NCBI GenBank assembly: GCA_963751345.1
Contig: CAVVUS010000049.1
Span: 50,220-114,219 of the forward strand
Source of the DNA: an uncultured Chloroflexia bacterium
GTDB lineage: Bacteria > Chloroflexota > Anaerolineae > B4-G1 > SLSP01
Direction: 5' to 3'
DNA: 64,000 bases
The position numbers were made by a program, and so were the translations under genes. Numbering within the stretch: the first letter of the stretch is position 1; each line of letters begins with the position of its first letter. The notes beneath the pieces are model-generated. The model was not told the DNA's origin, searched no databases, and worked only from the letters and a program-made list of their open reading frames with translations. Below are positions 2,868-20,157 of the stretch, piece after piece.

Positions 2868-2953
2868 ATCGATCGTGCCCTGTCGTGCCACTTGCACCAC
2901 GGGTCAAAGCGTACTATCGTTAGAATGTCGCGTCAGCAAAGAGGAGGGGTGCA

Positions 2954-3731: not shown

Positions 3732-5521
3732 AGTGCCCGAGGTGTGGCACCGAAAACGCATCGGATGCCGGCTACTGTGAAGAGTGTGGTGCGAGCTTTG
3801 GGGCCGCGCCCGCATCGGTGGCGGCGACCGGTAGCCTGAGCACGCGTCAACTGCAAGCAGGCCCAGCGACGCCGAAGAGTGGTGTGAGCTCGCTGAAGGA
3901 TACAACACCGTTGGGGGAGTTCACGAACCGGTTTGCGGCACTTCCCGAAGGGGCGATTCTCGGCCGACGCTACATCGTGCGCGAGGTGCGGGTCGAGGGT
4001 GAGACCCATAACGTCTATCTGGCCGAGGGTCTCGTTCCTGCACATGAGTGTCCGAACTGTCACGCCGTCAGCGAAACCGAGGACGAGCGCTACTGCTCCG
4101 ACTGTGGGGCGGAATTGCAGGGCACGGAACCTGCTGTCCGGCGCTATCTTGTGCAGGAGCGGGTGAACGGAAATGCCTTCGCGATGGAGCGCCAGCTTCT
4201 GGGCATGCAGCTCGCCCACCCGGGGCTGCTGTTGCCCCTGGAGGTGTTCCAGGAGGCTCCCTACGGCGACGCTCGCACCTATCGCGTGGTGCCTGAGTTT
4301 GCGCCTCCCCTGGCACAGACCCTGGTACTTCCACAGCCATGGGGCAAAGTTGTGTCCTGGGGGGCCGCGCTGGCGCAAGCGATGGCGCATCTCCACCAGC
4401 ACCAGATCGCCATTGGCGCGGTGGATGTGGCCCACATTGCTGTGGATGGCGACCAGGCGCTGTGGACCGGACTTAGCGATGTAAAGATCCTTCCACCGGA
4501 GCAGCGAAGTGATGCCGGTCAAGTCTTTGCCGTGGATGTCCAGCGACTTGCCGCCGCTCTCATCTACTTAGGGACGGGGAAAGAGCAACCCGCCACCGGA
4601 CTCGAGCTGCCGGTAGGACTCAAGCAACTGCTAGGACAGGCTCTCGACGGGATCAGTGCGGCGCAGTTGGCGGCGCAGCTTCGTGCGCTGCTCGGGGGGA
4701 ATGGCCGGTCGAGCTATGTGTCGCTGGTCGTGGGGGCGCGGAGCGATGTCGGACCCGTTCGAGAGCTCAATGAGGACAAGGCGTTGACGCGTAACCTCTC
4801 GGCCGGTAACGGGCCGGGACCCGCAGTGGGCCTCGTTCTGGTGGCGGATGGTATGGGAGGCTACGATGCCGGGGAGGTCGCGAGCGACCTGGCCTGTCGC
4901 GCGGTCGCCGCCCTGGCGGAGACGGAGCCGCCGCGTGTGACCCCCTGGGGCGACGTGGTGCCCGAGCCGGGTGAGTGGCTCACCCGGGCAGTGCAGGCGG
5001 CCAACCGGTCGGTGTTCGATCAACGCCGCGCGGCGAGTTCCGATATGGGCACGACGATGGTGACCGCGCTGGTGATCGGCGCCGGCATAGATGGCGAGAC
5101 CGACTCGGCCCCGGCGGCAACGGCGACGATCGCCAATGTGGGCGACAGCCGATGCTACCATCTCGGCGACGGGTCGATCCGGCGGGTGACCGTTGATCAT
5201 TCCCTCGTCGAGCGTCTTGTTGCGGCGGGGCAGATCACGGCGGAGGAAGCTATCAACCATCCCCAGCGGAACGTCATCTACCGGGCAATCGGTGACCAGC
5301 CGGAGGTCGAGGTGGACCTCTATGCTCAGTTGCTTCGCCCTGGCGAGGCTCTGCTCCTCTGCTCGGACGGGTTGAGCGGCAAGGTGCGCGATGAGCGACT
5401 ACTGCAGATCTGGCAAGCTTCGATGTCGCCCCAAGAGGCGTGTGACCGGATGGTCGAGGCTGCTGTTCAAGCTGGAGGCGAGGACAATATCACGGCTGTC
5501 ATCATCCGGGCAGTGCCATGA
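3728..5521 (+). CDS. Zinc ribbon + degenerate Hanks-type kinase domain + PP2C (Stp1/PrpC-like) Ser/Thr phosphatase fusion
   Basis: PP2C motifs SDVG..R..NED, VADGMGG, MGTT, ANVGDSR, DHSLV, CSDGL, GGEDNIT intact; kinase-like RY..., HPGL, LAQAMAHLH but no HRD or DFG; CPRC/CEEC and CPNC/CSDC; ATGA overlap with upstream gene. Confidence 0.88.
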   Translation: MKCPRCGTENASDAGYCEECGASFGAAPASVAATGSLSTRQLQAGPATPKSGVSSLKDTTPLGEFTNRFAALPEGAILGRRYIVREVRVEGETHNVYLAEGLVPAHECPNCHAVSETEDERYCSDCGAELQGTEPAVRRYLVQERVNGNAFAMERQLLGMQLAHPGLLLPLEVFQEAPYGDARTYRVVPEFAPPLAQTLVLPQPWGKVVSWGAALAQAMAHLHQHQIAIGAVDVAHIAVDGDQALWTGLSDVKILPPEQRSDAGQVFAVDVQRLAAALIYLGTGKEQPATGLELPVGLKQLLGQALDGISAAQLAAQLRALLGGNGRSSYVSLVVGARSDVGPVRELNEDKALTRNLSAGNGPGPAVGLVLVADGMGGYDAGEVASDLACRAVAALAETEPPRVTPWGDVVPEPGEWLTRAVQAANRSVFDQRRAASSDMGTTMVTALVIGAGIDGETDSAPAATATIANVGDSRCYHLGDGSIRRVTVDHSLVERLVAAGQITAEEAINHPQRNVIYRAIGDQPEVEVDLYAQLLRPGEALLLCSDGLSGKVRDERLLQIWQASMSPQEACDRMVEAAVQAGGEDNITAVIIRAVP

Positions 5522-5560
5522 TGGCGTGAACCGACGCGACGACTAGACGGGAGGGGTGCG

Positions 5561-7780
5561 ATGAAGCTGCAACGTGTTCTGCTAAAGGTGATATGTTTGG
5601 CGGTCCTGTTCTCCGTGGGGTCGGTGCTCGTCGGTGCCCAGGATCTGGAGCCTCCTATCGTCGATATCCTTGGGCGGCCGGATTCGCGTTCGGCGCCTCC
5701 CGATGTAAGCGCCTACGTGTCGGTTGTGGATCGCCCCAGTGGCCGGGTCATTGAGGGTCTGCAGGATGCCAATTTCTCGGCGCAGATCTCTGAGGAGGAG
5801 ATTCAGCCGACGGTGGCTCTGGACACGACCGGTCTGGCGGTAGTGATGGTGATCGACCGGGGCGGGATCGCGCGTCGCAACGACCCGCGTATCGGCAGTG
5901 CCGTGGATCTTGCGAGCGCCCTGCTCAATATGCTCAACGTTGACGGAACGCCCACAGCCGATCTCGTTGCCCTAATCGGCATTCGCGGACAGGATCAGGG
6001 CGGGCTGACGCCTGCGGTGAATTTCACCGACTTCGACCCAGTCGCCATCAGCAACCAGTTTGATGCCCTGCGGACCGAGGTGGTGGACGAGACGACGCCG
6101 CTCTACGATGGGATCGACCGGGCGATCTCGTGGATTGCGAGCAACCCCGACCCAGCGATCCAGGACAAGCTGGCGCTTCGCCGCAAGATCATCTTTGTCT
6201 TCTCCGACGGCATCGACCGCGGTTTCAGCGACGAGTCGCACGAGGCCCTGATCGTCGATCAGGCCCAGCAGAACGACATCCTCATTTACGCGATCCAGAT
6301 GACGGCGAACGGGAGGACCGCGGAGTCTGATAGCCTGAACGCCATGGCGACGCAGAGCAACGGCACCTTCTTCGTCGACAGCCCGGACACGCACGACCAG
6401 GTGATCTCGCACTTCCAGGACATCGTGACGCAGCGGCAGGCCTATCGTGTGACCTTCCCGCTGACCCGACCTCTGGGTGACTACCAATTGCAGATCCGGG
6501 TGCTCAATGCGCCCGGGGGCGCCGGATCAGATATGAGCGTGGTATCTTCGAACCTGCAGAAGCCGGTCATCACCCTCAACGCTCCGCCCAATCCGACGTT
6601 CGTCGTGCCATACTCGGAGGACGATGGCGGATTCGTCACCACGATGGTGCCTTTGACGGTGCTGCTCAGCAACCGCGACGGCGCGCCTCGCAATCCCGAT
6701 GAGGTCTCGTACTTCGCCAACGAGCAGCGCATCGGTGTGTCGGGTGATGTGCCCGACTATGCCTTCACGTGGGACGTGACGAACCTCGCCGCCCCGTCCA
6801 CCGACCGGATCACAAGGACCTACACGCTTGTAGCGCGCGCAACCGACCCTTATCTCGACGAGGAGTTGCAGAGTCAACTGGTCGACGTGCAGGTGGCCTG
6901 GGAGCCACAGCCTGAGGCGGCCCCCCAGACGGTGTCGGAGGCGGTGACCGCCAGCGTCGCGGAGACGTGGTGGGTGCTACCGATCTTCGGTGTCCTGGGA
7001 CTCGGGTTGATCGTCGTCATCGTACTGCTTGTTCGAACGCGCGGACAGGTCGCCCGGAAGGTCGTGCAGAATACCAGCACGGCAATCAAGGGGGTGACGC
7101 AGCGCCTGGGGAGCGGGGGGGCGATGCCTGCGGCCAGCGGCAAGCTCGTCGTGGTCCAGGGCCCGCGTATGGGCAACGAGTTCAGCTTGGCGACCCCTGC
7201 CGCGAGGGTTGGGCGAGATGCTGAGTTCAGCGATTTTGCCCTCAACGACCGGTTCGTCTCCAATCCGCACTTCACGATCCTGGAGGAAGGGGGGCAGTTC
7301 TACATCCGCGACGAGGGGAGTACCAACCGAACTCGCGTGAACGGCGTCGTCATCCCGCCTAACCAGCGCCTACCACTCTCGCCGGACGCCATCATTGAGG
7401 CGGGGCAGACTCGAATGCAGCTCAAACGATTGGGCGGCGACACGCGCCGGGTGGGCGCCTCGGAGACGGTCTATGCGCCTCAGACGGCGAATGCGCCTCA
7501 GACGGCGAATGCGCCTCAGACGGCGGGCGCGCCTCAGACGGCGGGAGGTCGTCCGACAGTCGCTGCGGGGCGAGGGCCTAGCTCGCCCGGGATCTCCCCG
7601 ACGCGGATCGTATCTCCTCGCCAGGAGGAGCCGCGTGGTGATACGGCGGCGCCGACGGTCATCTCAGAGGACGCGGAAGATGCTGCGACCCGGCAGCGGG
7701 CCTCCGAGGATGAAGACAAGTACAAGACGAGGAACGTCTCAGACGATAGGTACAAGACGAGGAACATCAGACAGGAGTAG
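5561..7780 (+). CDS. Signal peptide + vWA domain + Ig-like region + TM + cytoplasmic FHA domain + Thr-rich repetitive tail
   Basis: N-terminal signal; vWA motifs VVMVIDRGG, TPLYDGI, FVFSDG; TM WWVLPIFGVLGLGLIVVIVLLV; FHA VGRD, VSNPH, DEGSTNRTRVNG; GGAGG RBS. Confidence 0.85.
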   Translation: MKLQRVLLKVICLAVLFSVGSVLVGAQDLEPPIVDILGRPDSRSAPPDVSAYVSVVDRPSGRVIEGLQDANFSAQISEEEIQPTVALDTTGLAVVMVIDRGGIARRNDPRIGSAVDLASALLNMLNVDGTPTADLVALIGIRGQDQGGLTPAVNFTDFDPVAISNQFDALRTEVVDETTPLYDGIDRAISWIASNPDPAIQDKLALRRKIIFVFSDGIDRGFSDESHEALIVDQAQQNDILIYAIQMTANGRTAESDSLNAMATQSNGTFFVDSPDTHDQVISHFQDIVTQRQAYRVTFPLTRPLGDYQLQIRVLNAPGGAGSDMSVVSSNLQKPVITLNAPPNPTFVVPYSEDDGGFVTTMVPLTVLLSNRDGAPRNPDEVSYFANEQRIGVSGDVPDYAFTWDVTNLAAPSTDRITRTYTLVARATDPYLDEELQSQLVDVQVAWEPQPEAAPQTVSEAVTASVAETWWVLPIFGVLGLGLIVVIVLLVRTRGQVARKVVQNTSTAIKGVTQRLGSGGAMPAASGKLVVVQGPRMGNEFSLATPAARVGRDAEFSDFALNDRFVSNPHFTILEEGGQFYIRDEGSTNRTRVNGVVIPPNQRLPLSPDAIIEAGQTRMQLKRLGGDTRRVGASETVYAPQTANAPQTANAPQTAGAPQTAGGRPTVAAGRGPSSPGISPTRIVSPRQEEPRGDTAAPTVISEDAEDAATRQRASEDEDKYKTRNVSDDRYKTRNIRQE
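7475..7546 (+). repeat. 4 x 18-bp in-frame tandem repeat (GCGCCTCAGACGGCGRRN) encoding APQTAN/APQTAG
   Basis: Units start at 7475, 7493, 7511 and 7529. Confidence 0.9.
7721..7765 (+). repeat. Direct repeat TACAAGACGAGGAAC x2 with 30-bp period, encoding YKTRN twice
   Basis: Copies at 7721-7735 and 7751-7765. Confidence 0.85.
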
Positions 7781-7785
7781 ACACA

Positions 7786-8961
7786 ATGCCTATTTGCGCG
7801 AATTGCGGCGCCCAGCAGCCGGAGGGAGTGGCTTTCTGTGATGAGTGCGGCGCCCCATTGCGAAGCCAACAGGTGCCCGCGCAGCCGTCCCCGGCTGCAG
7901 GGCAGGCACGGACCGTGGTCGCCTCTAACGTCTGTCCGGTCTGTGGTGCGCGGACCTCGCCGCAGGATCCCTTCTGTTCGAATTGTGGCGCTGCATTGAG
8001 AGAGGCGGCATCTGGTGTGGTGGCTGACGGGCAACCGCAGAACCTACCCCAACAGCAGGCTGTCTCGCAGCCGCCGGCGGAGCCCTGGCCAATGCCTGCC
8101 CCTGGCGCGTCGGCCGATGCCCCTACGGCTTTTGGGCAACCTGGAGTGTCTCCGCCGCAGGCGCCTGCACCCCAAGCTGGCCTCGGAGCGACCGTCGTCT
8201 CGGGGCAGGGGGGGCGTGGGATGGCGGGTGGCATTCCCCCGCAGGAGCTCTACGGTCCGCCCGGTGGCTTACCACCGGCCGGCGCCAATCTGCCCGCACC
8301 CGGTCCACTGATCTGCACGAACTGCGGGGCAAAACTCGAGCCCGACAGTGCATTTTGCGATATGTGTGGCGCTCCCGTGCGCCCACCGGCGTCTCAGAGT
8401 GCGGCCGCGCCTCAGCAGGTGCCGCAGCCTCGGACCGCATCCGGGTCCCAAGTATGGGGCCCGCCCGAGCCCGGAGCCGGCCCCTCGGCGGCTGAGCCCA
8501 CGCAAACAACATCACCGCCGGCCCAGACGCCGGATGCTACTTCGTTAGCGTGGGGAGGTGAGTTGGGTACGTCGCAGTCTGCGCCACCTGTGGCCTCGGG
8601 GTATGAGGATGTTGAGCCGGCGCCTCGGCCGCCGCTGACCGGGAGGTTCATCATACAGGGGACTGACGCATCTCTGCCGATCCCGCCCGGACAGATCGAA
8701 GTGATAGTCGGGCGAGAGGATCCTGTCAGGGGAATCCACCCCGATATTGACTTGACCGACCACGGCGGCGACGAAGGCGGCGTTTCGCGGAGGCACGCCC
8801 GGATCATCGTCGAGAGCGGTCAGTTCTACATCGAGGATCTCGAAAGCCTCAACCACACGCTTCTCAACCAGGAGCAGTTGACGCCCGGGCACCTACGCCC
8901 ACTCCATACCGGAGATGAAGTCGCCTTTGGCCGCGTGATAACCATCTTCCAGAGGACGTGA
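7786..8961 (+). CDS. Triple zinc-ribbon, Pro-rich, C-terminal FHA domain protein
   Basis: CANC/CDEC, CPVC/CSNC, CTNC/CDMC; FHA IVGRED..PDIDL..GVSRRHARI..DLESLNHT. Confidence 0.88.
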   Translation: MPICANCGAQQPEGVAFCDECGAPLRSQQVPAQPSPAAGQARTVVASNVCPVCGARTSPQDPFCSNCGAALREAASGVVADGQPQNLPQQQAVSQPPAEPWPMPAPGASADAPTAFGQPGVSPPQAPAPQAGLGATVVSGQGGRGMAGGIPPQELYGPPGGLPPAGANLPAPGPLICTNCGAKLEPDSAFCDMCGAPVRPPASQSAAAPQQVPQPRTASGSQVWGPPEPGAGPSAAEPTQTTSPPAQTPDATSLAWGGELGTSQSAPPVASGYEDVEPAPRPPLTGRFIIQGTDASLPIPPGQIEVIVGREDPVRGIHPDIDLTDHGGDEGGVSRRHARIIVESGQFYIEDLESLNHTLLNQEQLTPGHLRPLHTGDEVAFGRVITIFQRT

Positions 8962-9140
8962 GAGCATCCGTGCTGGAATCGCGGATTTCTACGAACGCCG
9001 TAGGTTTGACGGCGGAAGTCCGGGACGCCGACCTCTTGGGCGGCGCGCCCGTCAGGATCACGTCGGAACGCGAGCAACCGCGATCCGTCGAGTCCAGCCA
9101 ACGCGTATACTCTGGGAATCCGAGATCTCGCGAGCAGGTC

Positions 9141-10199
9141 ATGTATTCCCGGGTCGCCCAAAGACTGGACGGCGTGTTGCATCGTGCCGAGATAGGCGAT
9201 CCGAGTTGTGGGCACGTGAGCTTCGATGTGCACACGGACCGTTACATCCTCTTCTCCGACCTGCATCGCGGGGCGCGAACTGCTGCGGATGAGTTTCAGG
9301 GGGCCGAACGTGCCTATCGCGCTGCGCTTGCGTACTATCTCGAACTCGGCTACACCCTGGTCGTCCTGGGCGATGCCGAGGAGCTCTGGGAGGAACGTGC
9401 GGCTGCTGTTCTGGCTTCCTATGGTGAGACTTTCGAGCTCGAGGCAGAGTTCCATCGCCGGAGGAGATACCTGAGGATCTGGGGCAATCACGATGACGAG
9501 TGGCAGTATCCGGCCGGGGTTGGTCGGCTATTGGCACCTGTCTACGGATCACCTCGACTGCAGGTTTATGAGGGCATCCTTGTCGAGATGACCGAGGGTG
9601 ATCGGACCTTGGGCCGGCTGTTCCTTGTGCATGGCCATCAGGGCGATGCGAGAAGCGATCGTTGGGCGTGGGCTTCGAAGCTGGTGATCCGCTATCTCTG
9701 GCGTCCCTATCAGCGATTGACGCGAGCGAGGATCAACACACCTGCGACAAGCTGGGGCCTCCGTGACAAGCTCAACCGCGCGATGTACGCGTGGGCGGAA
9801 ACGCAAGGCAAGCTGGTGTTGATCGCGGGACATACACACCATCCGGTCTTCAGGTCGATGTCGCACGAGGCGCGAATCCGGGCGCGGCTGGCGGAGCTCG
9901 AAGCAGCCGCCGGAGATCCGATGCTGCCCTCCGAACGGCTGGAAATCGCCTACCTGCGCGCACAATTCCAGTGGGTCCGGACGTCTAATCAAGGGTCCCA
10001 GCGGCAGCCGGAGGGGATCTCCTTCGATACGCCCTGTTATTTCAACACCGGATGCTGCTGCTATGATGACGGTGACATCACGGGCCTTGAGATCGCTGAC
10101 GGCGAGATCCGCTTGGTGCGGTGGCCCGACGATTATGGCGAACCACGTCCTCACGTGCTTGATCGCGACAGGCTGGACGCCGTGCTGGCTGCTTGCTGA
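9141..10199 (+). CDS. Calcineurin-like metallophosphoesterase
   Basis: SDLH, LGDAEE, GNHD, HGH, AGHTH, YFNTG motifs; ATG 9141 preferred over the ORF-track start. Confidence 0.85.
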   Translation: MYSRVAQRLDGVLHRAEIGDPSCGHVSFDVHTDRYILFSDLHRGARTAADEFQGAERAYRAALAYYLELGYTLVVLGDAEELWEERAAAVLASYGETFELEAEFHRRRRYLRIWGNHDDEWQYPAGVGRLLAPVYGSPRLQVYEGILVEMTEGDRTLGRLFLVHGHQGDARSDRWAWASKLVIRYLWRPYQRLTRARINTPATSWGLRDKLNRAMYAWAETQGKLVLIAGHTHHPVFRSMSHEARIRARLAELEAAAGDPMLPSERLEIAYLRAQFQWVRTSNQGSQRQPEGISFDTPCYFNTGCCCYDDGDITGLEIADGEIRLVRWPDDYGEPRPHVLDRDRLDAVLAAC

Positions 10200-10215
10200 C
10201 CGGCTCTGTTAACGG

Positions 10216-11267
10216 TCAGTTTCTGACCATCACCTTGATGGTCTCCGACCGGTGTGCAGAGGCGAACTCAAAGGCTTCGACAACCTCTGTGAAAGCGAAG
10301 CGGTGCGACACAAGCCGGTCGACGTGGAGCCTTCCCGACGCCAGCAGGCTGATCGCGGTCGGGTAGGTGTTGGCGTAGCGGTTGACTCCCCGCACGTCCA
10401 GTTCCTTTGTCCAGGACAACCTCAATCGGGAAGTCGACGGTGGAACTCTCCGGCCAACCCACGAGGGTGACCACGCCGCCACGCTTGGCGAGGTGCGGCG
10501 TGAGTTTGCACGCGGTCGACGAGCCGCTTGTGTCGAAGACGACATCCACGCCGCGACCGTGGGTCAGCTCTGCGATCGCCTCGACGGGGTCGGATCGCAG
10601 CGACCGTTGATGGGCGTCGCGCCCAGCGAGCCGCCAGCGCTCAGCCGGTTGGCCAGGAGATCCACGGCGAACGCTTGCGTCGCGCCATAGGCCCGAGCGA
10701 CGAGGAGCGTCACCAGGCCGATAGGGCCGGCACCCAGCACGGCGATCGTGTCGCCCGCGTGGAGACCCGCCCGGTTGCACGCCTGAATGCCCACGCTCAC
10801 CGGCTCCACAAAGCCGCCGCCTCGTCGTCCACCGTGTCGGGCACCGGATGGGCGAAGTCGGCTGCCACAGCAGCGTACCCGGCAAAGGTCCCGTTTACGG
10901 GTGGCGCCGACATAAAGACGACGTCAGGGCAGAGATTGTAGCGTCCGGACTTGCACATCTCACAGCGTCGGCACGGAACGCCCGGTTCGATCGCCACCCG
11001 ACTGCCCAGAGCAGGGCCGCTACCCGAGGCTGCTGCCTGTGCCACGACGCCGCACGCCTCGTGGCCCGGGATGTAGGGCGAGGTGACTACGAAGGGGCCG
11101 AGTTGGCCGCGCTCATAGAAATGAATGTCGGATCCGCAGAGCCCGTTCGTCGTGATGCGCACCAGCACTTCGTCAGGTCTGGGTTTCGGCGTCGCCACGC
11201 GTTCGTAGCGGAGATCGCGTGCGCTGTAGAGCACGGCTGCATCCATCGTTGCGGGCGTTTCGACCAT
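10216..11267 (-). CDS. Zn-dependent NAD(P) polyol dehydrogenase (sorbitol/xylitol dehydrogenase-like); about 3 apparent frameshifts
   Basis: GLCGSDIH, GHE, CRRCEMCKSGRYNLC, EPVSVG, GAGPIG, DVVFDTSG, RYAN..P motifs spread over consecutive frames. Confidence 0.85.
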
Positions 11268-11303
11268 GGCGATGCTCCTTATCGATGCGGAAACCTGGGC
11301 ACC

Positions 11304-11393
11304 CCAGCAAGGTTTGTAGTAACGACTTCAGTCGTTCTGGCACCTCAGAAGGCGCTACCAGAACCGATGAATCGGTTACTACAAACCTGCTGG
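11304..11393. repeat. GTAG-type REP doublet in inverted orientation (REPIN-like)
   Basis: GTAGT-AACGAC-TTCA-GTCGTT at 11316-11336 and, on the minus strand, GTAGT-AACCGA-TTCA-TCGGTT at 11362-11382, inside a larger imperfect inverted repeat. Confidence 0.75.
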
Positions 11394-11406
11394 CCGTTTG
11401 TGGTTC

Positions 11407-12309
11407 TTACGAGTGCTTTGCTTCGATCCCGAATGCTCGTGCGACCTCTGTCAACTCCTCCATCCGCTCCTTGGTAGGCGGCGTCAGCGTGGCGGCGTCG
11501 TAGGCCATGTCCAGACTATCGTACTTGCTCGTGGCCATCGCGTGGAAGCGCAGAAGCTCGTAGGAGGCCAGGTTGGGCAGGCCTGCCACGAAGCCTGCTA
11601 TCTCAGCGATGGTCGCCTCATCATCATTGACGCCCGGCACGATGGGCGTCCGGACGATGAGCGGTTTGCCCGTCTCGCCCAGACGCTTGGCGTTCTCCAG
11701 GATCCGTTCGTTGGGGACGCCAACGAAGGTGCGATGGCGCTCGGAGTTCATCAGTTTCACGTCCATCATCACCAGGTCGGTGACGGGTAGAACCCGCTCG
11801 ATGCGCTCCCACGGCATGTTCGCCGCGGTCTCGATGGCGGTGTGGATGCCGGCATCGTGGCAGCGCGCCAGGACCGCTTCGGTGAATTCGAGCTGGAGCA
11901 ACGGATCGCCGCCCGAGAGCGTCACGCCGCCGCCCGAGGTCTCATAGAACGCGCGGTCGCGCAACACGGTCTCGACGACATCGTCAACGGTCTTGGTCTC
12001 GCCGATCAGGACGAGCGCCTTCGCGTAGCATGTCTCGGTGCATACCCCGCAGCCGATGCACACCGAGCGATCGAAGAGATGCTCGCCATCGACGAGGGTA
12101 TGCGCGCCCTGCGGGCAGCGCTCGAAGCACTCACCACACCCGATGCAGCGGTCCAGGAAGAGCTGCAATTGCGGCTTCGGGCTCAGCGTCTCCGGGTTGT
12201 GGCACCAGAAGCAGCGTTGGTTGCAGCCCTTCAGAAAGACCGTCGTACGGATGCCTGGGCCATCGTGGATCGAAAAGTGTTGGATATCTGTGACGATGCC
12301 TTCGATCAT
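11407..12309 (-). CDS. Glycyl-radical enzyme activating enzyme (radical SAM with 2x[4Fe-4S] ferredoxin insert)
   Basis: HDGPGIRTTVFLKGCNQRCFWCHNPE; CIGCGECFERC and CIGCGVCTETC; GGVTLSGGDP. Confidence 0.95.
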   Translation of the reverse strand: MIEGIVTDIQHFSIHDGPGIRTTVFLKGCNQRCFWCHNPETLSPKPQLQLFLDRCIGCGECFERCPQGAHTLVDGEHLFDRSVCIGCGVCTETCYAKALVLIGETKTVDDVVETVLRDRAFYETSGGGVTLSGGDPLLQLEFTEAVLARCHDAGIHTAIETAANMPWERIERVLPVTDLVMMDVKLMNSERHRTFVGVPNERILENAKRLGETGKPLIVRTPIVPGVNDDEATIAEIAGFVAGLPNLASYELLRFHAMATSKYDSLDMAYDAATLTPPTKERMEELTEVARAFGIEAKHS

Positions 12310-12317
12310 CAGATGGC

Positions 12318-14573
12318 TCAGCTCTCCGCGAGGATCCGGTCGACGATCGGCTGCCGGTACTCGCGCGACAGCGAGTTGAAATAGGCGCTGTAGCCCGTGA
12401 CCCTGATCATCAGATCGGGATGGGTGGATGGGTCCTCGTGGGCTTCCACGACCTTCTCCTTGGAGATCACGTTCATGTTGATGAGCGTGCCGCCCTGGCG
12501 GTTGTGCGCCATGATAAAGGCCATCACCGCGTCGACACCGCCCATGCTCTTGACCAGTTTGTCATCCAGCTCCACTTGCAGTGGGGTGGTGTTTCCCCAT
12601 CCCGACTGCGTGGCTGCCACAGCGTTGGCCTTGGCCGTAAGTGCCACCGCACCTCCGGGCAAGAAGCCCGGATCGGGGTCGGCGCTGTGCGACACAGGCG
12701 TGAAGGCGTGGCGTCCATTAGGCGTCGCGCCAAGCCGCCTGCCGTAGGTATTCGTGTTCCCGTGTGAGAAGAGGCCCGGGACGCAGATGTAGTGTCCCTT
12801 TGGCGTGGGGGTGTCCCGCACCAGGTGCGTCCAGAGGTCGGCGATCCGCTCAGCCCACCAGTCGGCGCGCGAGCCGCCGCTGCCGTACCGTGGGATGTTG
12901 TGGAGCATCAGCCGGACGGCCTCCGCACCCTCGAAATCGTTCTCCAGGTGCTGCATCAGGGCTTCCCAACTCAGCCGCTTCTCCTCTACGACGCGCTGCT
13001 CGATCGCCGCGAAGGAGTCGGCTACCGTGGCAAGTCCGATGGCGTCGAAGGCCAGGTCGATGATGTCCAGTCCACCTGCGGAGGCATCGAGCCCGCGTTC
13101 CACAGGGCCGTGGCAGAAGAGGTTGAGCACGATCTCGGTGTAGTTGTCGGCCTGGCGCTCCATATGGATGTCCTTGCCGACCTTGACCGCCTGGACGACG
13201 ATGCTGAGGTGCTCGGCATAGCGGCGCCAGACCTCGTCCATCGTCCTATGGGCCTTCTCGTCCGCCATCATGTCGTCGAGGGCCAGCAGGAGAGGGGTGA
13301 TCAGGCAGAGACGCGTGCCATCCTGGATGCTGTACTCGAAACCCGGTAGTGCCGTCCAGTTGCAGCCGACCTTGGCGCGCATGCGGGCCAGCCCGATCGG
13401 GTAACCGTTCTTGGCAAAGCCCTCATCCAGCCCGCCGGAGAGCGCAAAGTCGACGCCTGTGCCATCCTCGATCATGTACTCCAGCGCTTGCCGGAGCAGG
13501 CTCTGGTCCATGCCCTCCCAAACACGCAGAGCGATGTTGGTGGGGATCTTGATGCGGTGCATCGCCTCCAGGATCAGGAACGACATCTCGCTCGTCAGGT
13601 CGTGCCCGTCAGCGGCTTGCCCGCCGATCTGCGAGTAGTGCGGATCGTTGAAGAACATGCTGGCGATATGCCAGACAATCGACTCGTCGGTCTCGCGACC
13701 GGCGGCGATATCGGCCTCGTAGTAGGGGCGCAGCAGCTCGTCAAGCTGACCCAGTGCGCCGCCCAGCGCCCACATACGATCGATAGTCTGCGCCCAGACG
13801 ATGAACTGGCACGCCTCACGGAAGGTCCGCGGCGCGCCGTCGATGAGGTACTCATTGACCTCGGCGATGTCGAGCAGGTTCTGCTTGGTGAGCGGATCCG
13901 TCTCGCTGTCAGCCATCTCGCGGGCCAGGTCAACGTGACGCTGGATCCACGTCTGGACGCCAAGGATCAGGTCCTCCTCACCGTCGTAGAAGGAGGTGTC
14001 CTGTGGGTGATTGATCTCACGGAAGTGGCGCACCTTCTCCAGAAGCCCGCCCCAGCCCAACTCCAGCCCGATCAGCATGTCGGGGCCGAAGTGGTTCTTG
14101 TTGCCGATGCCGGGGCTGTAGGTGTTGTATTTCCTGTGGAGTTCGAAGAGACCTGTGGGGCGATCTTCGGGCTTCCAGCTGGTGGGGAAACTCCCATCGA
14201 CCAGGCGACGGCGCGGCTTCTTGGGATCGCGCTTGCCCATGCCCCGCTCCAGGTCGAAGCCACCGAGGCCGGGGATGCCCTTGTAGACCCAGGCACCTGC
14301 CATTGAGCTCGACGGATGAATGTAGAGCGGGTGAACCTCCAGCCAGCGGCGGAAGTTCATGCCGATGCATTTCATCCCGTAGCAACCGCCATCGGGATGG
14401 TTGGGGATCACCTCGAAGTCGATCGGCTCCGTCCAGGGGATATAGCCGTGGTCGTCGGTGTCGAAGTAGCCGAAGAGCTGGACCTTGAGGTCGGTGTGTT
14501 CCTTTTTTGTGTCGTGCAGAGCGTCAATACGTTGCTGGTAGATCGCGTCAGGTACGTCGCCAATGAGTGTCAT
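12318..14573 (-). CDS. Glycyl-radical enzyme (PFL superfamily) of unassigned subfamily
   Basis: C-terminal glycyl loop DLMIRVTGYSAYF; single-Cys loop KVGCNW; GATPNGR; GLATVADS; cognate activase 8 bp downstream. Confidence 0.92.
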   Translation of the reverse strand: MTLIGDVPDAIYQQRIDALHDTKKEHTDLKVQLFGYFDTDDHGYIPWTEPIDFEVIPNHPDGGCYGMKCIGMNFRRWLEVHPLYIHPSSSMAGAWVYKGIPGLGGFDLERGMGKRDPKKPRRRLVDGSFPTSWKPEDRPTGLFELHRKYNTYSPGIGNKNHFGPDMLIGLELGWGGLLEKVRHFREINHPQDTSFYDGEEDLILGVQTWIQRHVDLAREMADSETDPLTKQNLLDIAEVNEYLIDGAPRTFREACQFIVWAQTIDRMWALGGALGQLDELLRPYYEADIAAGRETDESIVWHIASMFFNDPHYSQIGGQAADGHDLTSEMSFLILEAMHRIKIPTNIALRVWEGMDQSLLRQALEYMIEDGTGVDFALSGGLDEGFAKNGYPIGLARMRAKVGCNWTALPGFEYSIQDGTRLCLITPLLLALDDMMADEKAHRTMDEVWRRYAEHLSIVVQAVKVGKDIHMERQADNYTEIVLNLFCHGPVERGLDASAGGLDIIDLAFDAIGLATVADSFAAIEQRVVEEKRLSWEALMQHLENDFEGAEAVRLMLHNIPRYGSGGSRADWWAERIADLWTHLVRDTPTPKGHYICVPGLFSHGNTNTYGRRLGATPNGRHAFTPVSHSADPDPGFLPGGAVALTAKANAVAATQSGWGNTTPLQVELDDKLVKSMGGVDAVMAFIMAHNRQGGTLINMNVISKEKVVEAHEDPSTHPDLMIRVTGYSAYFNSLSREYRQPIVDRILAES

Positions 14574-14663
14574 CGATGTTCACCTCCGTGAGAGTAGTAT
14601 ACCACGGGGAAGGAGGGATGCGCCAGGGGAAGATTGGACTCAATCCACCGGAATTAGTCCGAT

Positions 14664-17600
14664 CTAGCCCTCGCCTGCTCGCACCAACAGCGTCGTCTCC
14701 TGCCGGACGTTGGCGGAGGAGCTGCCGATCATCACGCGGACCGTGCCGGGCTCGGTCTCCCAGCGCCCGCGGTCGGGGTTCCAGTGCGCCAACGAGTCCC
14801 GGTCGAGGGTGAACTCTACCGTGTGTGTCTCGCCCTGGAGCAGCGTGATGCGGCGGAAGCCCTTGAGTTCCTTCGCCGGCCGGTCGACGCTCGAGTTGAG
14901 GTGCTGAATGTAGAGCTGCACCACCTCGTCGCCCGCGCGATCCCCCGTGTTGGTCACGTCGACGCTCACGGTCACCGCGGCCTCGGGGCCGAGTTCGGGT
15001 GCGCTCAGCCGCAGGTTGCTGTACTCGAACGTGGTGTAGCTCAGGCCGTAGCCGAATGGATAGAGCGGCTCGCCCTTGAAGTACATATAGGTGCGGCCGT
15101 TGCGGAGGTCGTAGTCGAGCCGCGGCGGCAGTTGCTCGATCGTCCGGGGCCAGGTCTGGACGAGCTTCCCACCGGGGTTGACATCGCCAAAGAGGACGTC
15201 CGCCAGCGCGTTGCCCAACTCCTGGCTGTTGTGGGTGAGGTGGACGATCGCGGGCACGTTGTGCTCGAGTCCAGGTGATGGCGAAGGGGAAGCTCGCGAG
15301 CAGCACGACGATCGTGTTCGGGTTCGCGCGGTAGATCTCCTTGACCAACGCTTCCTGCTCCAGCACGATCGCGCGGCGGTCGATGGCCTCCTTGCCGTCG
15401 CTGGGGGTGGGGCACTCGGCCCATCCTGCGTCGCAGGTGGGGTGGTTGCCCACGACGACGATCGCGACGTCGGCCGCGCGGGCCAGTTCGGCCGCGGCGC
15501 CGCCCTCGTTGTCCCTGGCGTAGGTCACCTCGACGCCCGCCCCGGCCCTGGCGCGGATGCCCTCCAGCGCCGAGACGGTGTAGGGGGGCGTGCCGCTGTA
15601 CCAGTCGAGCGCGACGTCATCGGCCCGCGGGCCGATGACGGCGATTGAGGTCACCTCGTCGGCATTCAGCGGCAGTAGGCGATCTCCGCCGGAAACGGGC
15701 GCGTTCTTGAGCAGCACGATCGACCGCTGGGTGACCAGGCGGGCAAGCGCCTTGTGCTCGGCGCTGTCCCACGGCTCGGGCTCGCCCTCGCGCCCGATCT
15801 CGCTGTAGGGCACCTGCTCGGGCGGGTCCAGCATCCCCAGCTTGATCATCACGCGGAAGACGCCGCGCAGGACGGCGTCGATCTCCGCCTCGGTGAGCAG
15901 GCCCTGGGCGAGCGCGCCCTCCGTCCCCTCGCGGTAGCGGTCCAGGAACTGGTTGATCCCCGCCTTGATGGAGGCAGCGGCGGCCATCTCCGGGTCGGGG
16001 TAGTACTTGTGCTCGGTGACGAGCATCGTCAAGGCACCGGCGTCGGTGCAGATGATGCCGTCCTGGCCCCACTCTTCGACTGTGATCTCCCTGAGGATCG
16101 GGTGGACGGTGCAGGGAATGCCGTTGACGGCGTTGTAGGCTGCCATATAGGCGCGCGCGCCGCCCTCCACGATGCCCCTGCGGAAGGGCTCGGCGTAGTA
16201 CTCGCGGAGCAACCGCTGGTCGAAGTTCGACGAGGAGCGCACGCGCTCGTCCTCGTTGCTGTTGGCGAGGAAGTGCTTGAGCAGCGAGGCTGTCTGCCAG
16301 TAGCGTGGGTGATCGCCCTGCAGTCCCCTCACGAAGGCCGCCACCAGCGTCCCGTTCAAGTAGGGGTCCTCGCCGTAGCATTCCTCGTTGCGGCCCCAGC
16401 GGATGTCGCGGCCGAGGTCGGCGTTGGGCGCGCGCACGACGAGCCCGCCCTGCCGGTAGCGCCTGCTCTGTGCCATATAGCGCGTCTCGTATCCCTCAAC
16501 GGCTGCGGCGCGCTGTATCAGGTCGGGATCCCACGTTTCTCCAAGGCCGATAGCCTGGGGAAACTGCGTCGTCGGAACCACTGTCGGACGTCCCCACCCG
16601 CCCGGCCCGCCCATAGCCAGCCCGTGGAGGCCCTCGACGTGGCCGGTGCCCCAGATGCCCAGCCGTGGGACGTCGGGCACGGTGCCCAAGCAAGCGACCT
16701 TCTCGTCGAGGGTCATGCGGGAAAGGATGTCGTCGACCCGCGCCTCGACGGGCAGGTCGGGATCGGCGAAAGGGAATCCGGCGCGGTAGCGGCGGACGAT
16801 CTCCACCGTGTCGCCTGTGTCCTCCAGTTCGAGCAGCAGCGCGCGCTCGTTCGGGCTCCTGTTGGGATGGTGCAGCGCGACCATCGGCGTGCCGTCAAAG
16901 GTGTGGAAGATCATCGCGTGCCCGCCATCCTCCGCGAAGAGAGGGCGAGGGTGCTGTACCCACGGGCCGAAGAGGCTCCCGGATTCCGAGGCCGCAATCA
17001 AGGTCGTGTAGCCGCGCCAACCAAATGTGGACCAGAGCATCAGCAGGCGACCGCTCTTGGTCCGGTAGAGAAACGGTCCGTCCGTGATGTACCGATCCCC
17101 GCCCGGACGTGCCACAGGAGCGTCACTGCCCCTGAACAACGTAACCGGCTCACCGACTGTGTCCGATAGATCGTCGGCCAGACGAACGCACTCGACGGTG
17201 CCGTCTGCGATCTGCACCCACTCGTGGCAGTAGACCATATAGGGGACACCGTCCTCGATCCAGAGCGTGCCGTCAAGCGCCATCTGGTCGGTGGGGGTGT
17301 GGGCCCGATTGTGGAAGGGCCGAAAGGGCCCCAGCGGCGACTCGCCGACGAGGACCTGGGAGCCGCGCATGACGAGGGGCGGCCAGTCCTCGGCTTCCCC
17401 AGCGGCGACCGGCGGTTGGGCGTTGGGAAGGGGTATGTGGGTGTTGAAGGTGACGAAGAGGTAGAACTTGCCCCGGTAGGCGTGCATCTCGGGCGCCCAG
17501 ATGGACCCCTGCGCCCAGAAGTCGGGCGGCGTCTCGAAGACGGGGGTGGGTCCACGCCACGTCTCCAGGTCCTGGCTCGTGTAGACGCCCACGCCGGGCC

Positions 17601-17730
17601 GCGGACGTTCCGAGGAGGGGTGCAGTGACGCGACCAGGTAGTAGGTCTGCGTGGCAGCGTCGGGCAGGATGAAGGGATCGCGGATGCGCAGGTCGGCCAG
17701 GCTGAAGGCGTTCTCGGGGGCTGGGGTCAT
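14664..17730 (-). CDS. GH43 + GH3 (beta-glucosidase/xylosidase, with Fn3-like C-terminus) fusion; apparent frameshift ~15260
   Basis: GH43 IRDPFI, WAPE, DGTL, ITDGPF; GH3 RWGRNEECYGEDP, KHFLAN, CTDAG; C-terminal PLYPFGYGLSYT, DEVVQLY, KELKGF in ORF 14664-15257; AAGGAG RBS. Confidence 0.88.
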
Positions 17731-17747
17731 TATGAACTCCTTACGCG

Positions 17748-17784
17748 TAGAAACGTTGGCACGCTAACACGTTTCCATGTTAGC
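17748..17784. promoter_or_regulatory. Putative LacI-family operator(s) upstream of the GH43-GH3 gene
   Basis: TAGAAACGTTGGCA (17748-17761, central AACGTT) and GCTAACA-N8-TGTTAGC inverted repeat (17763-17784). Confidence 0.45.
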
Positions 17785-18086
17785 ACGGGCGCCTCCGAAC
17801 GCGAGCGCACCGGAACGCGAATCCGCATCTCTTCCGGGAAGGTGGCCGTGCCTTCCCGCAAGATGGGGTGAGCTGAATTGGTCGACCGGATGAGCATTGT
17901 GGACGCAGAAACGATTGTGGAAGGTGGATCCGGACGTCTACCGGCATACGCCTAGCATAGCACGAGGTCGCCTTGCACCACGCGCGGGCCAACTGCCGCG
18001 ACCCTAGGTATTTCACTCCTCCAGTCCTGGAAGGTCAAATCCTGGCGCTGCAGGGACAGCTTCCCGGAAGCTGAGTACGCCCCGGT

Positions 18087-19000
18087 CTAGCTGACCGGGT
18101 TGGGTTGTGCCAACCTGGCGAGGTCGGGCGCCTCCATGCGCGGGCCGGGGTAGCGCGGTCACTTCGCCAAACCGACGGTGTTGCTCCCAATCCTTCGCGC
18201 GCCTGCGCGATTTCGTCGCGAGTGCGGGCCACGAAGTTCCACCACATCAGGATCTGCTCGGAGAAAGGCGGCCCACCGACCAGGAGGACGCGGCCTCCCT
18301 CGCGGCTGCTCAGCGAGGCTGACGGCCGTCCGACATCCAGGACGTTGAGCATGTTTTCACCAAGGGCCTTGCCCTCGAAGGTGACGTCTCCCTGCAAGAG
18401 GAGCAGAGCGTGCTCGTAGCTCGGGTCCAAGCCGAAGGTCGTCGCCTCTCCCGCGTGGATTGACACATCCGCACCCAGGATCTCCGAATAGTGACGCACG
18501 GGCGAGGTCACATCCTGCAGCGAGCCGGAGAAGACCCGGATGATGCCGCCCGGCTGCTCGACGACGGGCACCTCGGCGACGCTTTCGAACGTGGGCGCTC
18601 CCTCGCGATGCGCGTCGGGCAGCGCCGCCCAGAGCTGGATGCCGTTCAACCGCCCACTGTTGGGCGTTGGGCTCCTCTCGGCGTGGGCAATTCCGTGACC
18701 GGCTGTCATCACGTTGACCCCACCGGGCCTCACGATGGCCTTGTAGCCCTGGCTGTCATTGTGCTGGACCTCACCCTCGATCAGCCACGTGACCGTCTGT
18801 ATGCCGATGTGAGGGTGGGGGGCGATGTCCATCGGGCTCGTCTCACCGAATGAGACCGGTCCGAAGTGATCCAGAAAACACCACGGGCCGATCATCCGGC
18901 GCTCCCGGATGGGCAGCGCCCGTGCGACGCTCAGCTCGCCGAGACTGACGTTTCGGCTCGGGTACGACTCAAATGGCTGGATAGCGATCGGTGATGTCAT
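18087..19000 (-). CDS. Pirin family protein (copy 2); apparent frameshift ~18190
   Basis: IGPWCFLDHFGP, PHPHIG, MTAGHGIAHAE, WWNFVAR; ATGA overlap with upstream pirin. Confidence 0.85.
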
Positions 19001-19897
19001 CGCAGGAACGTGCCCTCTTGGAGTTCGCGGAATGCCTGGCGGAGTTCTGCTTGGGTGTTCATCACGATAGGCCCATACCACGCCACCGGCTCTTTGAGCG
19101 GTTTCCCGGAGACCAGCAGGAAGCGGACGCCGTCGGCGCCTGCCTCGACGAGGATCTCGTCGCCGCTGCCGAATAGGACGAGCGAGGTATTGTCGGCTTC
19201 GGTCGGCGGCGTCGTGTCGGCCCAGCTCACGGGCTCGGTCGGGACCGCGAGCGGCTCCGAGGCGTCGCAGAAACGACCTGGCCCCTCCAAAGACGTAGGC
19301 AAAAGCGTTGCGCGCGGCCTCGACGGGCAGCGTCTTTTGCACCCGTGGAGGCACGGATATATCGAGATAGATGGGCGCTGCGGCGACGCCCTCGATCGGT
19401 CCGGTCGTCCCCCGATAGCCTCCGCATATCACGCGGACCTGTGTGCCGTCGTCGTCAGTCACCACCGGGACCTCGGATGCCGTCACGCCCTGGTAACGCG
19501 GATCGGTCATCTTCAGAGCAGCCGGCAGGTTGGCCCAAAGCTGAAATCCGTGCATCCTGCCCGCAGGATCACCCTTCGGCATCTCCTGGTGAATGATGCC
19601 CCCGCCCGCAGTCATCCACTGGACATCGCCCGCTCCGATCACCCCACCGTTGCCCATGCTGTCACCGTGCTCCACGGTGCCCGTGAGCACGTAGGTGATC
19701 GTCTCGATACCGCGGTGCGGATGCCAGGGAAAGCCGGCCAGGTAGTCGTCGGGAATGTCATTGCGGAAGTCGTCGAGCAGCAGGAACGGGTCAAAGTCGG
19801 TGGTATCGCCGAAGCCAAAGGCGCGCCGAAGGTGCACACCTGCACCTTCAATCGTGGGCTTTGCTTTGATCAAACGGGCGACGGGTCGGATGGACAT
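18997..19897 (-). CDS. Pirin family protein (copy 1); apparent frameshift ~19280
   Basis: EGAGV, DPFLLLD, GFPWHPHRGIET, WMTAGGGIIHQE; C-terminal EPVAWYGPIVMN in a second frame; GGAGG RBS. Confidence 0.88.
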
Positions 19898-20157
19898 TGT
19901 GACCTCCAATGCTATGAGTAACCCCACACGAGACGAGGTACCCTCCAACTTTGGAAGGGGCCATTCACTTCTACCAATATAGCACGGAAGACGCCTCCAG
20001 TGTGGCGGGGCCACGGTGGGCATTGGTTGGCGATCCGTTGAAGACCCTGGACGACGCAGATGGCTGTCTCCATGTGGTTGTATCGCGCGCCATTCCTTTG
20101 CCACCGGACTCAAGTATACTGGGGTAGTTGCGCGTCAATCGACTCCGGGAGGCATCG

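Follow-up and report, generated by a model that had tools for sequence, protein, structure and literature searches.

A glycyl radical enzyme (GRE) and its activating enzyme (activase) are encoded next to each other on the minus strand of a 64,000-nucleotide stretch of DNA from an uncultured Chloroflexia bacterium (contig CAVVUS010000049.1 of assembly GCA_963751345.1, forward-strand positions 50,220 to 114,219; hereafter the window, numbered from its first letter). Going by sequence, we firmly regard this pair as part of a real, large, conserved and uncharacterised GRE clade with an active-site signature of its own, a Cys-Asn-Trp (C-N-W) loop at the predicted catalytic cysteine. On balance we favour, as a somewhat probable account, a core GRE-activase pair of this clade that acts by radical chemistry on a small hydroxylated compound, most likely one derived from a carbohydrate, with a catalytic apparatus unlike that of the known GRE dehydratases, the glycosidase and dehydrogenase genes beside it not being core partners. 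That the substrate is both hydroxylated and carbohydrate-derived is a proposal whose chances seem to us about evenly balanced. We infer a radical-enzyme function because the motifs are intact, conservation is strong and an activase is linked; a carbohydrate-derived substrate is suggested by a retained His/Asp pair, by aromatic replacements in the active site, by the many paralogues and by a modest enrichment of the gene neighbourhoods.

The GRE gene (12318-14573, minus strand) is intact and encodes 751 amino acids with PFL-like (PF02901, 1.6e-81) and Gly_radical (PF01228, 2e-10) domains. An AlphaFold2 (AF2) model built from a 62-sequence alignment reached a pLDDT of 89.2 and a pTM of 0.91, and its Foldseek comparison with solved GREs gave query TM-scores (TMq) of 0.68-0.80 at 17-23% identity, with 1,2-propanediol dehydratase at the top. 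Sequence matches to the Protein Data Bank (PDB) were all weak and much alike, from E 3e-44 (CutC, HpsG) through 1e-40 (glycerol dehydratase, HypD, PflD) to 1e-17 (pyruvate formate-lyase, PFL), with 1e-16 as the upper limit, and the enzyme is about equidistant from every solved GRE. It reaches no NCBIfam cut-off; the best model is TIGR01774 (PFL2-3), at 222 bits against a cut-off of 678, and the HypD, CutC, HpsG and HpfG models fall far below theirs. A preliminary description of the locus, made from the letters and a list of open reading frames (ORFs), had placed the GRE outside the characterised families, and this was borne out by the missed cut-offs, by an identity of about 20% to the best solved structures (E 3e-44) and by a cysteine loop that is unlisted in the sections consulted of a 2026 review of the superfamily (PMC13450708).

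Two sets of relatives define the clade. The first consists of the best 120 of 1,481 database matches, all of them at least 60% identical to the query and 714-808 amino acids long. The second comes from a scan of species-representative genomes, which gave 103 confirmed stretches; 80 were kept as related loci, making 81 loci with the window and 88 GRE ORFs. Identity within the clade ranges from 60 to 98%, across phyla, and the clade comprises at least 120 clusters at 90% identity. The named sources of the homologues are Chloroflexota, Spirochaetaceae, Poribacteria and Euryarchaeota, and the loci come in addition from Latescibacterota, Armatimonadota-type families, a Gemmatimonadota metagenome-assembled genome (MAG), a Methanoperedens MAG and a few Bacillota. 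Among the other genomes of the window's genus, 17 of 18 have one to four matches at E<=1e-100; at the same threshold there was none in the 12 genomes of two other families of the order. A search of the Atlas with the GRE returned its own kind alone.

The residues expected of a GRE are in place. Gly727 lies in the motif RVTGYSAYF and is retained and invariant in the aligned sequences. Cys404, invariant in 62/62 of them, lies in a G-C-N-W-T-A-L-P-G loop that reads K-V/T-G-C404-N-W-T-A/S-L-P-G throughout the alignment, and it aligns with the catalytic cysteine of CutC, HpsG, 1,2-propanediol dehydratase (PD), glycerol dehydratase (GD) and HypD. Also invariant are His161 and Asp418. In an alignment whose positions were counted by hand, His161 aligns with GD His164, Asp418 stands at the position of GD Asp447, and Phe602 at that of GD Tyr640; Trp406 occupies the place of the glutamate in the C-x-E motif (GD Glu435, PD Glu440). 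Catalytic roles are reported for GD Asp447 and Tyr640 in the original structure paper. For His164 of glycerol dehydratase, the review gives the role of acid as proposed (PMC13450708).

The loop extends well beyond the alignment, G-C-N-W being present in 120/120 of the best homologues and in 81/88 GRE ORFs of the loci, while the other 7 ORFs have neither clade motif. The second motif concerns the glycyl radical domain. The GRE fingerprint given in the review, RVxG[FWY]x6-8[FL]x4Qx2[IV]x2R (PMC13450708), was matched by 0/88 locus ORFs and 0/120 homologues in a regular-expression tally, although the window's enzyme has its RVTGY core. A shifted form, in which the Gln comes a position later and the closing Arg a position sooner, was matched by 81/88 and 117/120 respectively, and on these counts we read the shift as a clade-wide variant, not a defect.

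The clade also lacks the glutamate of C-x-E. According to the review, C-x-E is kept in all six C-O eliminases, in CutC, in the C-S lyases and in the three isomerases, with the Glu bound to the substrate (PMC13450708), and the HypD structure paper also gives C-x-E as a requirement (PMC7077986). The C404-N405-W406 loop of the window's enzyme lacks this hallmark of the 1,2-eliminases and isomerases. The review recognises seven classes in the superfamily, and the motif fits none of them; no class with a C-N-W cysteine loop appears in the sections consulted (PMC13450708). A literature search, which covered articles, found no paper on a GRE with this loop or on its clade.

The activase gene (11407-12309, minus strand; 300 amino acids, intact) starts 8 nt after the GRE stop. 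Pfam finds Radical_SAM and two Fer4 motifs, and the protein scores 351 bits against a cut-off of 174 with TIGR02494. Its radical S-adenosylmethionine (SAM) motif is C29-x3-C33-x2-C36, and a ferredoxin-like insert with eight cysteines (C55/58/61/65 and C84/87/90/94) forms two CX2CX2CX3C motifs. The insert, with its Fer4 family matches, had been described as typical of activases that serve GREs other than PFL, and this holds: in the review, the ferredoxin-insert form belongs to most activases other than those of PFL and ribonucleotide reductase, and the PFL activating enzyme (PFL-AE) is without it (PMC13450708).

These features bear on the names that the relatives carry, which are mostly 'pyruvate-formate lyase' or 'formate C-acetyltransferase'. 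Such names, together with the PFL-like and Gly_radical domains that the enzyme has in common with PFL, are what speaks for a PFL. The labels are contradicted, because the cysteine loop has a single Cys; the two-Cys motif is limited to PFL and TdcE according to the review (PMC13450708). In addition, the PFL model TIGR01255 gives 64.7 bits against a cut-off of 994, PFL structures match the C-terminal third only (some 240 residues, E 3e-17), and the activase is of the other type, with the insert that PFL-AE lacks according to the same source. We therefore consider it extremely improbable that the GRE is a pyruvate formate-lyase. The practical consequence is that most source-named relatives bear misleading pyruvate formate-lyase or formate C-acetyltransferase labels.

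Among solved enzymes the closest in fold are glycerol dehydratase and 1,2-propanediol dehydratase (1r8w, 5i2g; TMq 0.79-0.80). By sequence, too, they belong with the best matches (E 1e-40 to 2e-42), at only 20-23% identity. Their catalytic cysteine and radical glycine align with those of the window's GRE, and the ferredoxin-insert type of activase is common to both; the differences are the replacement of GD Glu435 / PD Glu440 by Trp406 and of the residue at the GD Tyr640 position by Phe602, and the bacterial microcompartment (BMC) genes, which were not found in the window's genome. The isomerases YbiW and PflD (8id7, 8id0, 8yjo), whose substrates are 1,5-anhydroglucitol-6-P and 1,5-anhydromannitol-6-P, follow at TMq 0.76-0.78 (PflD E 7e-40, YbiW E 3e-29; 20-21% identity). 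According to the review, they keep C-x-E (Glu443, Glu433), unlike the window's enzyme, and they are the sole characterised GREs acting on sugar derivatives and hence a precedent for GREs in carbohydrate catabolism (PMC13450708). Their genetic context, a phosphotransferase system (PTS) or an aldolase, was not seen at the window locus. CutC (5a0u, 5fau, 9f3w) is the top PDB sequence match (E 3.4e-44; about 21% identity), and the Gly-Cys of its loop and its glycyl radical domain align with ours; its Glu491, essential according to the review (PMC13450708), is a Trp in the window's GRE, which scores 165 bits with the CutC model TIGR04394 against a cut-off of 1050, and cut or BMC genes are absent from the locus.

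Several other GREs were compared. PFL2 of Archaeoglobus fulgidus (2f3o; E 1.4e-33, 20% identity) has a comparable fold match (TMq 0.79) and is not of the same clade; its structure is solved, its function is debated, and its source is likewise an environmental organism. The decarboxylases (HPAD, IAD, PAD, AAD) are represented by NF033715, with 103 bits against 1150, and NF033718, with 100 against 1100; HPAD has a Glu at Cys+2 and a small subunit, and that Glu is lacking in the window's enzyme. The X-succinate synthases, which add fumarate and combine an alpha subunit with Fe-S small subunits (beta, gamma), gave the lowest PDB scores of any full-length GREs (E 3e-20 and 5e-19); the 8-nt gap between GRE and activase leaves no room for small genes. 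In aminoacyl radical enzymes the radical glycine is replaced by Ala, Ser or Thr, in contrast to the retained Gly727. A sulfonate lyase was considered and rejected, the position of HpsG Arg672 being Pro599 in our alignment, again counted by hand. A BMC-associated GRE was likewise rejected: the genome, 93% complete and searched throughout, yielded no shell gene (PF00936), which agrees with the earlier remark that no BMC, choline, hydroxyproline (Hyp) or isethionate genes are nearby, none of the last three signatures having been found either.

The source genome, a soil-type Chloroflexota of 5.4 Mb in 49 contigs (the window itself has a G+C content of about 63%), contains about twelve GRE-like loci. 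Five are of the clade type (C-N-W or C-H-W), the four besides the window's being C19:99126-101279, C31:11553-13809, C30:88857-91053 and C35:16738-18983, and seven are distant (on contigs C37, C26, C29, C43, C14, C21 and C11). The C30 and C35 paralogues, which are more distant from the window's GRE, have a C-H-W loop, the form of a sister group, with the same shifted fingerprint. In the seven distant enzymes the cysteine loop could be read in five, all with C-x-E, and the canonical fingerprint is present in six. The C19 and C31 loci look like near-duplicates. As to neighbours, the C35 paralogue adjoins an MR_MLE (enolase superfamily) gene, a weak GH5 match and an MFS gene, the C30 paralogue a solute-binding protein (SBP), an activase and a URO-D-like gene, and the C19 paralogue unrelated genes. 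Activases above the cut-off number three only in this genome (C49, C30, C24), against about twelve GRE-like loci, so that activases may be shared among its GREs.

Across the relatives, the activase is the gene that stays with the GRE. We searched the window's proteins in the 80 loci by tblastn (E<=1e-8) and found it in 45/80; its ORF cluster spans 46/81 with the window. Where the two are adjacent, gene order varies with the sub-branch: in 20 cases, whose GREs all share 64-98% identity with the query, the activase lies downstream, and in 24 cases, where GRE identity does not exceed 63%, it lies upstream. One locus, L021, has it about 9 kb from the GRE on the other strand. Four loci (L009, L012, L015, L018) show a tandem GRE - activase - GRE arrangement, with two clade paralogues and one activase.

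From these residues and partners a course of reaction can be proposed. The radical SAM activase, with three predicted [4Fe-4S] sites, would abstract a hydrogen from Gly727; the glycyl radical would then generate a thiyl radical at Cys404, which would attack the substrate. In such a scheme the hydroxyl-handling His161 and Asp418 would be kept, and the base Glu and a Tyr would be replaced by the aromatic Trp406 and Phe602. A bolder proposal, which we put forward only tentatively and would not yet bet on, is that C-[N/H]-W GREs might form an eighth functional class. They would catalyse a radical reaction not yet described, on substrates that derive from carbohydrates (sugar acids, or derivatives of pentoses or hexoses), with Trp and Phe in place of the diol-dehydratase Glu and Tyr. 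Diversification might then have given rise to the several paralogues found in single genomes of Chloroflexota, Latescibacterota, Poribacteria and others from soil, sediment, digesters and sponges.

Newly assigned GREs have each revealed an anaerobic route, be it from choline to trimethylamine or for hydroxyproline, isethionate and anhydro-sugars. Here, a clade with up to five copies per genome is without the catalytic Glu on which current eliminase and isomerase mechanisms rest. Its reaction, once assigned, would add a mechanistic class to the GRE superfamily, and it could expose an unrecognised step of anaerobic carbon turnover in abundant, mostly uncultured soil and sediment bacteria.

The pair stands within a run of four co-oriented minus-strand genes (10216-17730), as seen from the ORF list and Pfam. 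Orientation and domain content are as the preliminary description gave them, but its four genes are not all intact: GRE and activase are, and the two outer genes have broken frames. The first gene (14664-17730) encodes a GH43-GH3 fusion exo-glycosidase, where GH stands for glycoside hydrolase (Pfam GH43 1.4e-29, GH3 N 1e-31, Fn3-like 1.5e-28), of the beta-xylosidase / arabinofuranosidase / beta-glucosidase type, in which no signal peptide was recognised by eye; its best NCBIfam match, Xyl3A, stays under the cut-off. The last (10216-11267) encodes a medium-chain Zn-dependent dehydrogenase of the sorbitol / idonate / threonine-dehydrogenase-like kind, with ADH_N (3.8e-25) and ADH_zinc_N (2.9e-10) in separate ORFs. 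In the glycosidase, all four domains (GH43, GH3 N, GH3 C, Fn3-like) are present, not in one open frame: a 1060-amino-acid ORF (14548-17730) leaves the frame near 15267, GH3_C is split over two ORFs, and the remainder of it lies with the Fn3-like domain in a second ORF (14664-15257). The true stop is the TAG at 14664-14666, and the gap between glycosidase and GRE is therefore 90 nt (14574-14663), with no overlap. The dehydrogenase is in three pieces in different frames (10797-11267, 10268-10885 and 10216-10545), with switches near 10810, 10600 and 10409.

A comparison is offered by the closest related locus, L001, which is 92.0% identical in nucleotides over 8,673 aligned columns and has a GRE 98% identical to that of the window. 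It carries the same four genes in the same order, and both outer genes are in a single frame there (GH43-GH3 of 1029 amino acids, dehydrogenase of 349). Relative to L001, the glycosidase frame is broken by an uncompensated 1-nt insertion at 15267 (tblastn frames -2, then -3), and the dehydrogenase has a 1-nt deletion at about 10812, two 1-nt insertions at about 10602/10598 and one at about 10409; none of these indels sits in a long homopolymer. The broken pieces retain 89-94% amino-acid identity to L001. The dehydrogenase had been called a Zn polyol dehydrogenase. Its ADH_N and ADH_zinc_N domains stand, its single open frame does not, and neither does an assignment at the equivalog level, as the intact L001 protein best matches L-idonate 5-dehydrogenase with 220 bits against a cut-off of 469 and reaches no equivalog cut-off.

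Frame breaks are not confined to this locus. For a frame-error test, 368 proteins of at least 350 amino acids from the related loci were searched by tblastn against the window's own 5.4-Mb genome, and 40 distinct genes were kept at >=55% identity and >=70% coverage. Seven of these 40 unrelated conserved genes contain frame switches, nine in 61.0 kb or about one per 7 kb, and three of the four other clade GRE paralogues of the genome (C31, C30, C35) are split into differently framed pieces. A sequencing or assembly error is favoured because the breaks are general across the assembly. Judged by these alignments, most frame breaks are probably such errors, assembly errors are most likely for the broken GH43-GH3 and dehydrogenase frames too, and gene calls in the source genome should be read with care. 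The contrary account, that the locus is decaying, that the dehydrogenase and perhaps GH43-GH3 are true pseudogenes and that the strain has no multi-gene pathway whatever the GRE does, would explain the three switches within about 400 nt of the 1-kb dehydrogenase gene and the one in the glycosidase gene, the position of the indels outside long homopolymers and a density in the dehydrogenase far above 9 per 61 kb. Since that density is so far above average, error alone explains the dehydrogenase poorly, and this gene could be a real pseudogene. For the locus as a whole we consider decay unlikely, given the switches in 7/40 unrelated genes and in 3/4 other clade paralogues, which point to assembly error, and given the 89-94% identity of the pieces to L001, where both genes are intact. 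Among the metagenome contigs listed for three soil-metagenome runs (at most 0.19 of words), which are short, of low depth and from related strains, none bridges 15267, 10810, 10600 or 10409. The search that listed these runs gave no RNA run for the stretch.

The preliminary description went on to join the four genes into one anaerobic pathway, in which GH43-GH3 would free a pentose or hexose, the Zn-dehydrogenase would interconvert alditol and ketose, and the GRE would transform a sugar or alditol, all under one LacI-type operator. Co-orientation and the tight coupling of GRE and activase are in keeping with this, as is the intact L001 locus. The GH43-GH3 gene lies at most 7 kb upstream of the GRE in five of the six orthologous loci with at least 80% identity and enough flank (the window, L001 and L003-L005), and Zn-ADH relatives (cluster c7) occur within 6 kb of clade GREs in 8/81 loci. 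The counts over all loci speak against it. GH43 was found in 4/80 loci (L001, L003-L005) and GH3 in 5/80, the fifth being L043, whose GRE is immediately followed by a GH3 of 31% identity; the dehydrogenase was found in one or two of the 80, all three pieces matching in L001 only and a weak L050 match lying on the opposite strand at a distance of about 5 kb. The GH43-GH3 gene of L003-L005 is about 5-6 kb upstream of the GRE, separated from it by genes for a P-type metal ATPase and for a secreted protein that has no Pfam match, and L078, whose GRE is 86% identical, has no GH3 in the 10 kb upstream. Among these loci, the four genes appear as a unit only in the window and L001. With two of the four genes frame-broken in the window, a dispersed hairpin between activase and dehydrogenase, and inverted repeats that are lost in L001 while the window has no LacI gene, we regard the four-gene pathway as quite unlikely. 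On the evidence of these neighbourhoods, GH43-GH3 and the Zn-dehydrogenase are, in our reading, lineage-specific neighbours and not core partners.

Whether other sugar genes accompany the clade was assessed by clustering all ORFs of at least 90 amino acids from the 81 loci. The activase is the sole widely recurrent cluster, the next real gene clusters reaching at most 9 loci. We counted as carbohydrate-type any glycoside hydrolase, sugar ABC or MFS transporter, enolase-superfamily, GFO/IDH/MocA, URO-D-like, lactonase-like or sulfatase gene. Considering recurrent annotated clusters only, such a gene lies within 6 kb of the GRE in at least 36/81 loci. When 14.2-kb windows were drawn at random from the own genome, 23% contained members of the same clusters, so that the excess is about two-fold. 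The recurrent link between homologues and sugar genes that had been predicted is thus present, but it is heterogeneous. Some arrangements do repeat. The order sugar ABC transporter - activase - GRE is found in the Bacillota loci L076, L079 and L080, with permeases and a binding protein before the activase in L080 and, in L076 and L079, also a protein of about 740 amino acids without family before the activase; in the Chloroflexota loci L015 and L018, permeases and a large GH42-like protein are followed by GRE, activase and a second GRE. Further neighbours include a large sugar-binding protein, MR_MLE, GFO/IDH/MocA, glucosamine-6-P-isomerase/lactonase-like, HAD, sulfatase and MFS genes, GH116, GxGYxYP, GH38 and GH99 proteins and a weak GH42 match.

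Several observations weigh against a carbohydrate-derived substrate and against our account of the pair more generally. Among 106 same-strand neighbours, Pfam found 118 families, of which the commonest, ABC permease, has only 5 cases, followed by URO-D-like (4), GH3 (3), SDR (3) and P-type ATPase (3). A second tally took 46 of the 57 neighbours of at least 550 amino acids within three genes, leaving out eleven that were already annotated (the window's own two, that of L001, three ATPases, three binding proteins and two EF-G-like proteins). It gave 75 families, with PPDK-like 3, aldehyde:ferredoxin oxidoreductase 2, GH3 2, GH116 2, GxGYxYP 2, GH38 1 and GH99 1, so that the first two equal any glycoside hydrolase in frequency. 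At least 45/81 loci have no carbohydrate-type neighbour from recurrent annotated clusters, many of the loci being short. The two-fold excess is itself relative to a background of one genome with a similar, not identical, detection rule, and the loci are mutually related, many of them short, with singletons unannotated. Because the C-x-E Glu is lost, the analogy with diol dehydratases may mislead. Finally, the three switches in about 400 nt of the dehydrogenase, against an average of about one per 7 kb, sit uneasily with assembly error.

Some of these observations would be expected if the GRE substrate were not a carbohydrate at all but a small organic acid, an osmolyte or another common metabolite, the sugar-gene neighbours being incidental in CAZyme-rich genomes. 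The activase as sole conserved neighbour, the at least 45/81 loci without an annotated carbohydrate-type neighbour, the 23% of random own-genome windows that have one, and neighbours such as PPDK-like, aldehyde:ferredoxin oxidoreductase, metallo-beta-lactamase fold, DUF1576 and zinc-ribbon proteins would all fit, as would the housekeeping-like identity of 60-86% across phyla. We nevertheless hold this to be fairly unlikely. Carbohydrate-type neighbours are at about twice the crude background, the sugar transporter - activase - GRE order recurs, as do the permeases with a GH42-like protein in L015/L018, and several paralogues per genome, five in the present case, fit diversified substrates better than one central metabolite.

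A few neighbours deserve mention in their own right. Five related loci (L043, L028, L035, L054 and L077) have a URO-D-like gene no more than 6 kb from a clade GRE, directly upstream in L043 (8973-9962), and one also directly adjoins the own-genome C30 paralogue (L083:6654-7754); a protein of this uroporphyrinogen decarboxylase / methyltransferase fold is a possible recurrent partner. Large proteins are encoded directly upstream of the GRE or activase in L006 (1239-3743, 834 amino acids), L079 (6713-8947, 744) and L018 (7706-9931, 741). None has a PDB sequence match at E<=0.01, and Pfam finds nothing in those of L006 and L079 and a weak GH42 in that of L018. In the Atlas, the L079 protein falls close to 'beta-galactosidase-like' and GH42-type clusters (0.93-0.99), no more than a lead. 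By BLASTP it has no similarity to the L018 or L006 protein, and they were therefore not treated as a single family. These three may represent undescribed glycosidase-like families.

The spacers of the window's cluster were said to be short. This is so for the 8 nt between GRE and activase; the other two are 90 nt, between glycosidase and GRE, and 139 nt, between activase and dehydrogenase. By direct reading, the 90-nt spacer has GGAGG 9 nt before the ATG of the GRE and contains TGgTATACT, an extended -10-like motif. The 139-nt gap contains a near-perfect hairpin of about 90 nt (within 11300-11400) with a minimum free energy (MFE) of -59.2 kcal/mol and a z-score of -4.0, none of 200 shuffles being equally stable. 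It is a dispersed genomic repeat, of which blastn-short locates further copies, whole or in part, on 18 other contigs and a 96% identical copy in L001, and looks like an element of the repetitive extragenic palindrome (REP) or miniature inverted-repeat transposable element (MITE) kind. Its presence in the spacer makes it less safe to assume co-transcription of the dehydrogenase with GRE and activase. A search of 9800-18300 with Rfam gave no match at E<=1, the hairpin included, and a consensus scan for promoters and terminators gave one promoter-like and two terminator-like sites, none of which scored better than shuffles or fell at a gene junction.

In the region 5' of the glycosidase gene (17731-17790, minus strand), where a LacI-like palindrome had been reported, an AAGGAG ribosome-binding site precedes the ATG by 7 nt. 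A LacI-type operator is a palindrome of 14-20 bp of the TGnAAnCGnTTnCA type. What the region holds is a pair of perfect inverted repeats of 7 nt, interleaved with each other (17750-56/17769-75 and 17763-69/17778-84), a single half-site of which resembles a LacI operator by eye; 76/5000 shuffles of the 60 nt 5' of the start reach two such repeats, the region having been chosen post hoc. The repeats are not preserved in L001. No LacI helix-turn-helix (HTH) domain (PF00356) is encoded in the window, and of six in the genome the nearest, at C49:28286, is about 32 kb off. A LacI-regulated operon is not supported. The same 60 nt also hold four 8-nt units, GTGYYARC-like, and have 8-nt direct repeats in common with positions 6815-6850 of L001, which contain GTGCTAAC twice. 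Such GTGCTAAC-like direct repeats could be a putative site for a regulator other than LacI.

The genes on either side of the cluster are unrelated to sugar metabolism. Upstream, on the same strand, is a pirin-domain ORF of 692 amino acids (18035-20113, minus strand) with two Pirin N-domain matches and one Pirin_C match, which may be a fusion that arose by duplication, or else two pirin genes joined where a frame or stop is in error. Downstream, the opposite strand carries genes for zinc-ribbon, FHA, PP2C phosphatase, subtilase and metallophosphoesterase proteins (603-10199, plus strand). This block looks like a signalling module unrelated to the GRE; it is syntenic with the GRE locus in close relatives, its clusters c12, c14 and c15 being present in L001-L005 and L078.

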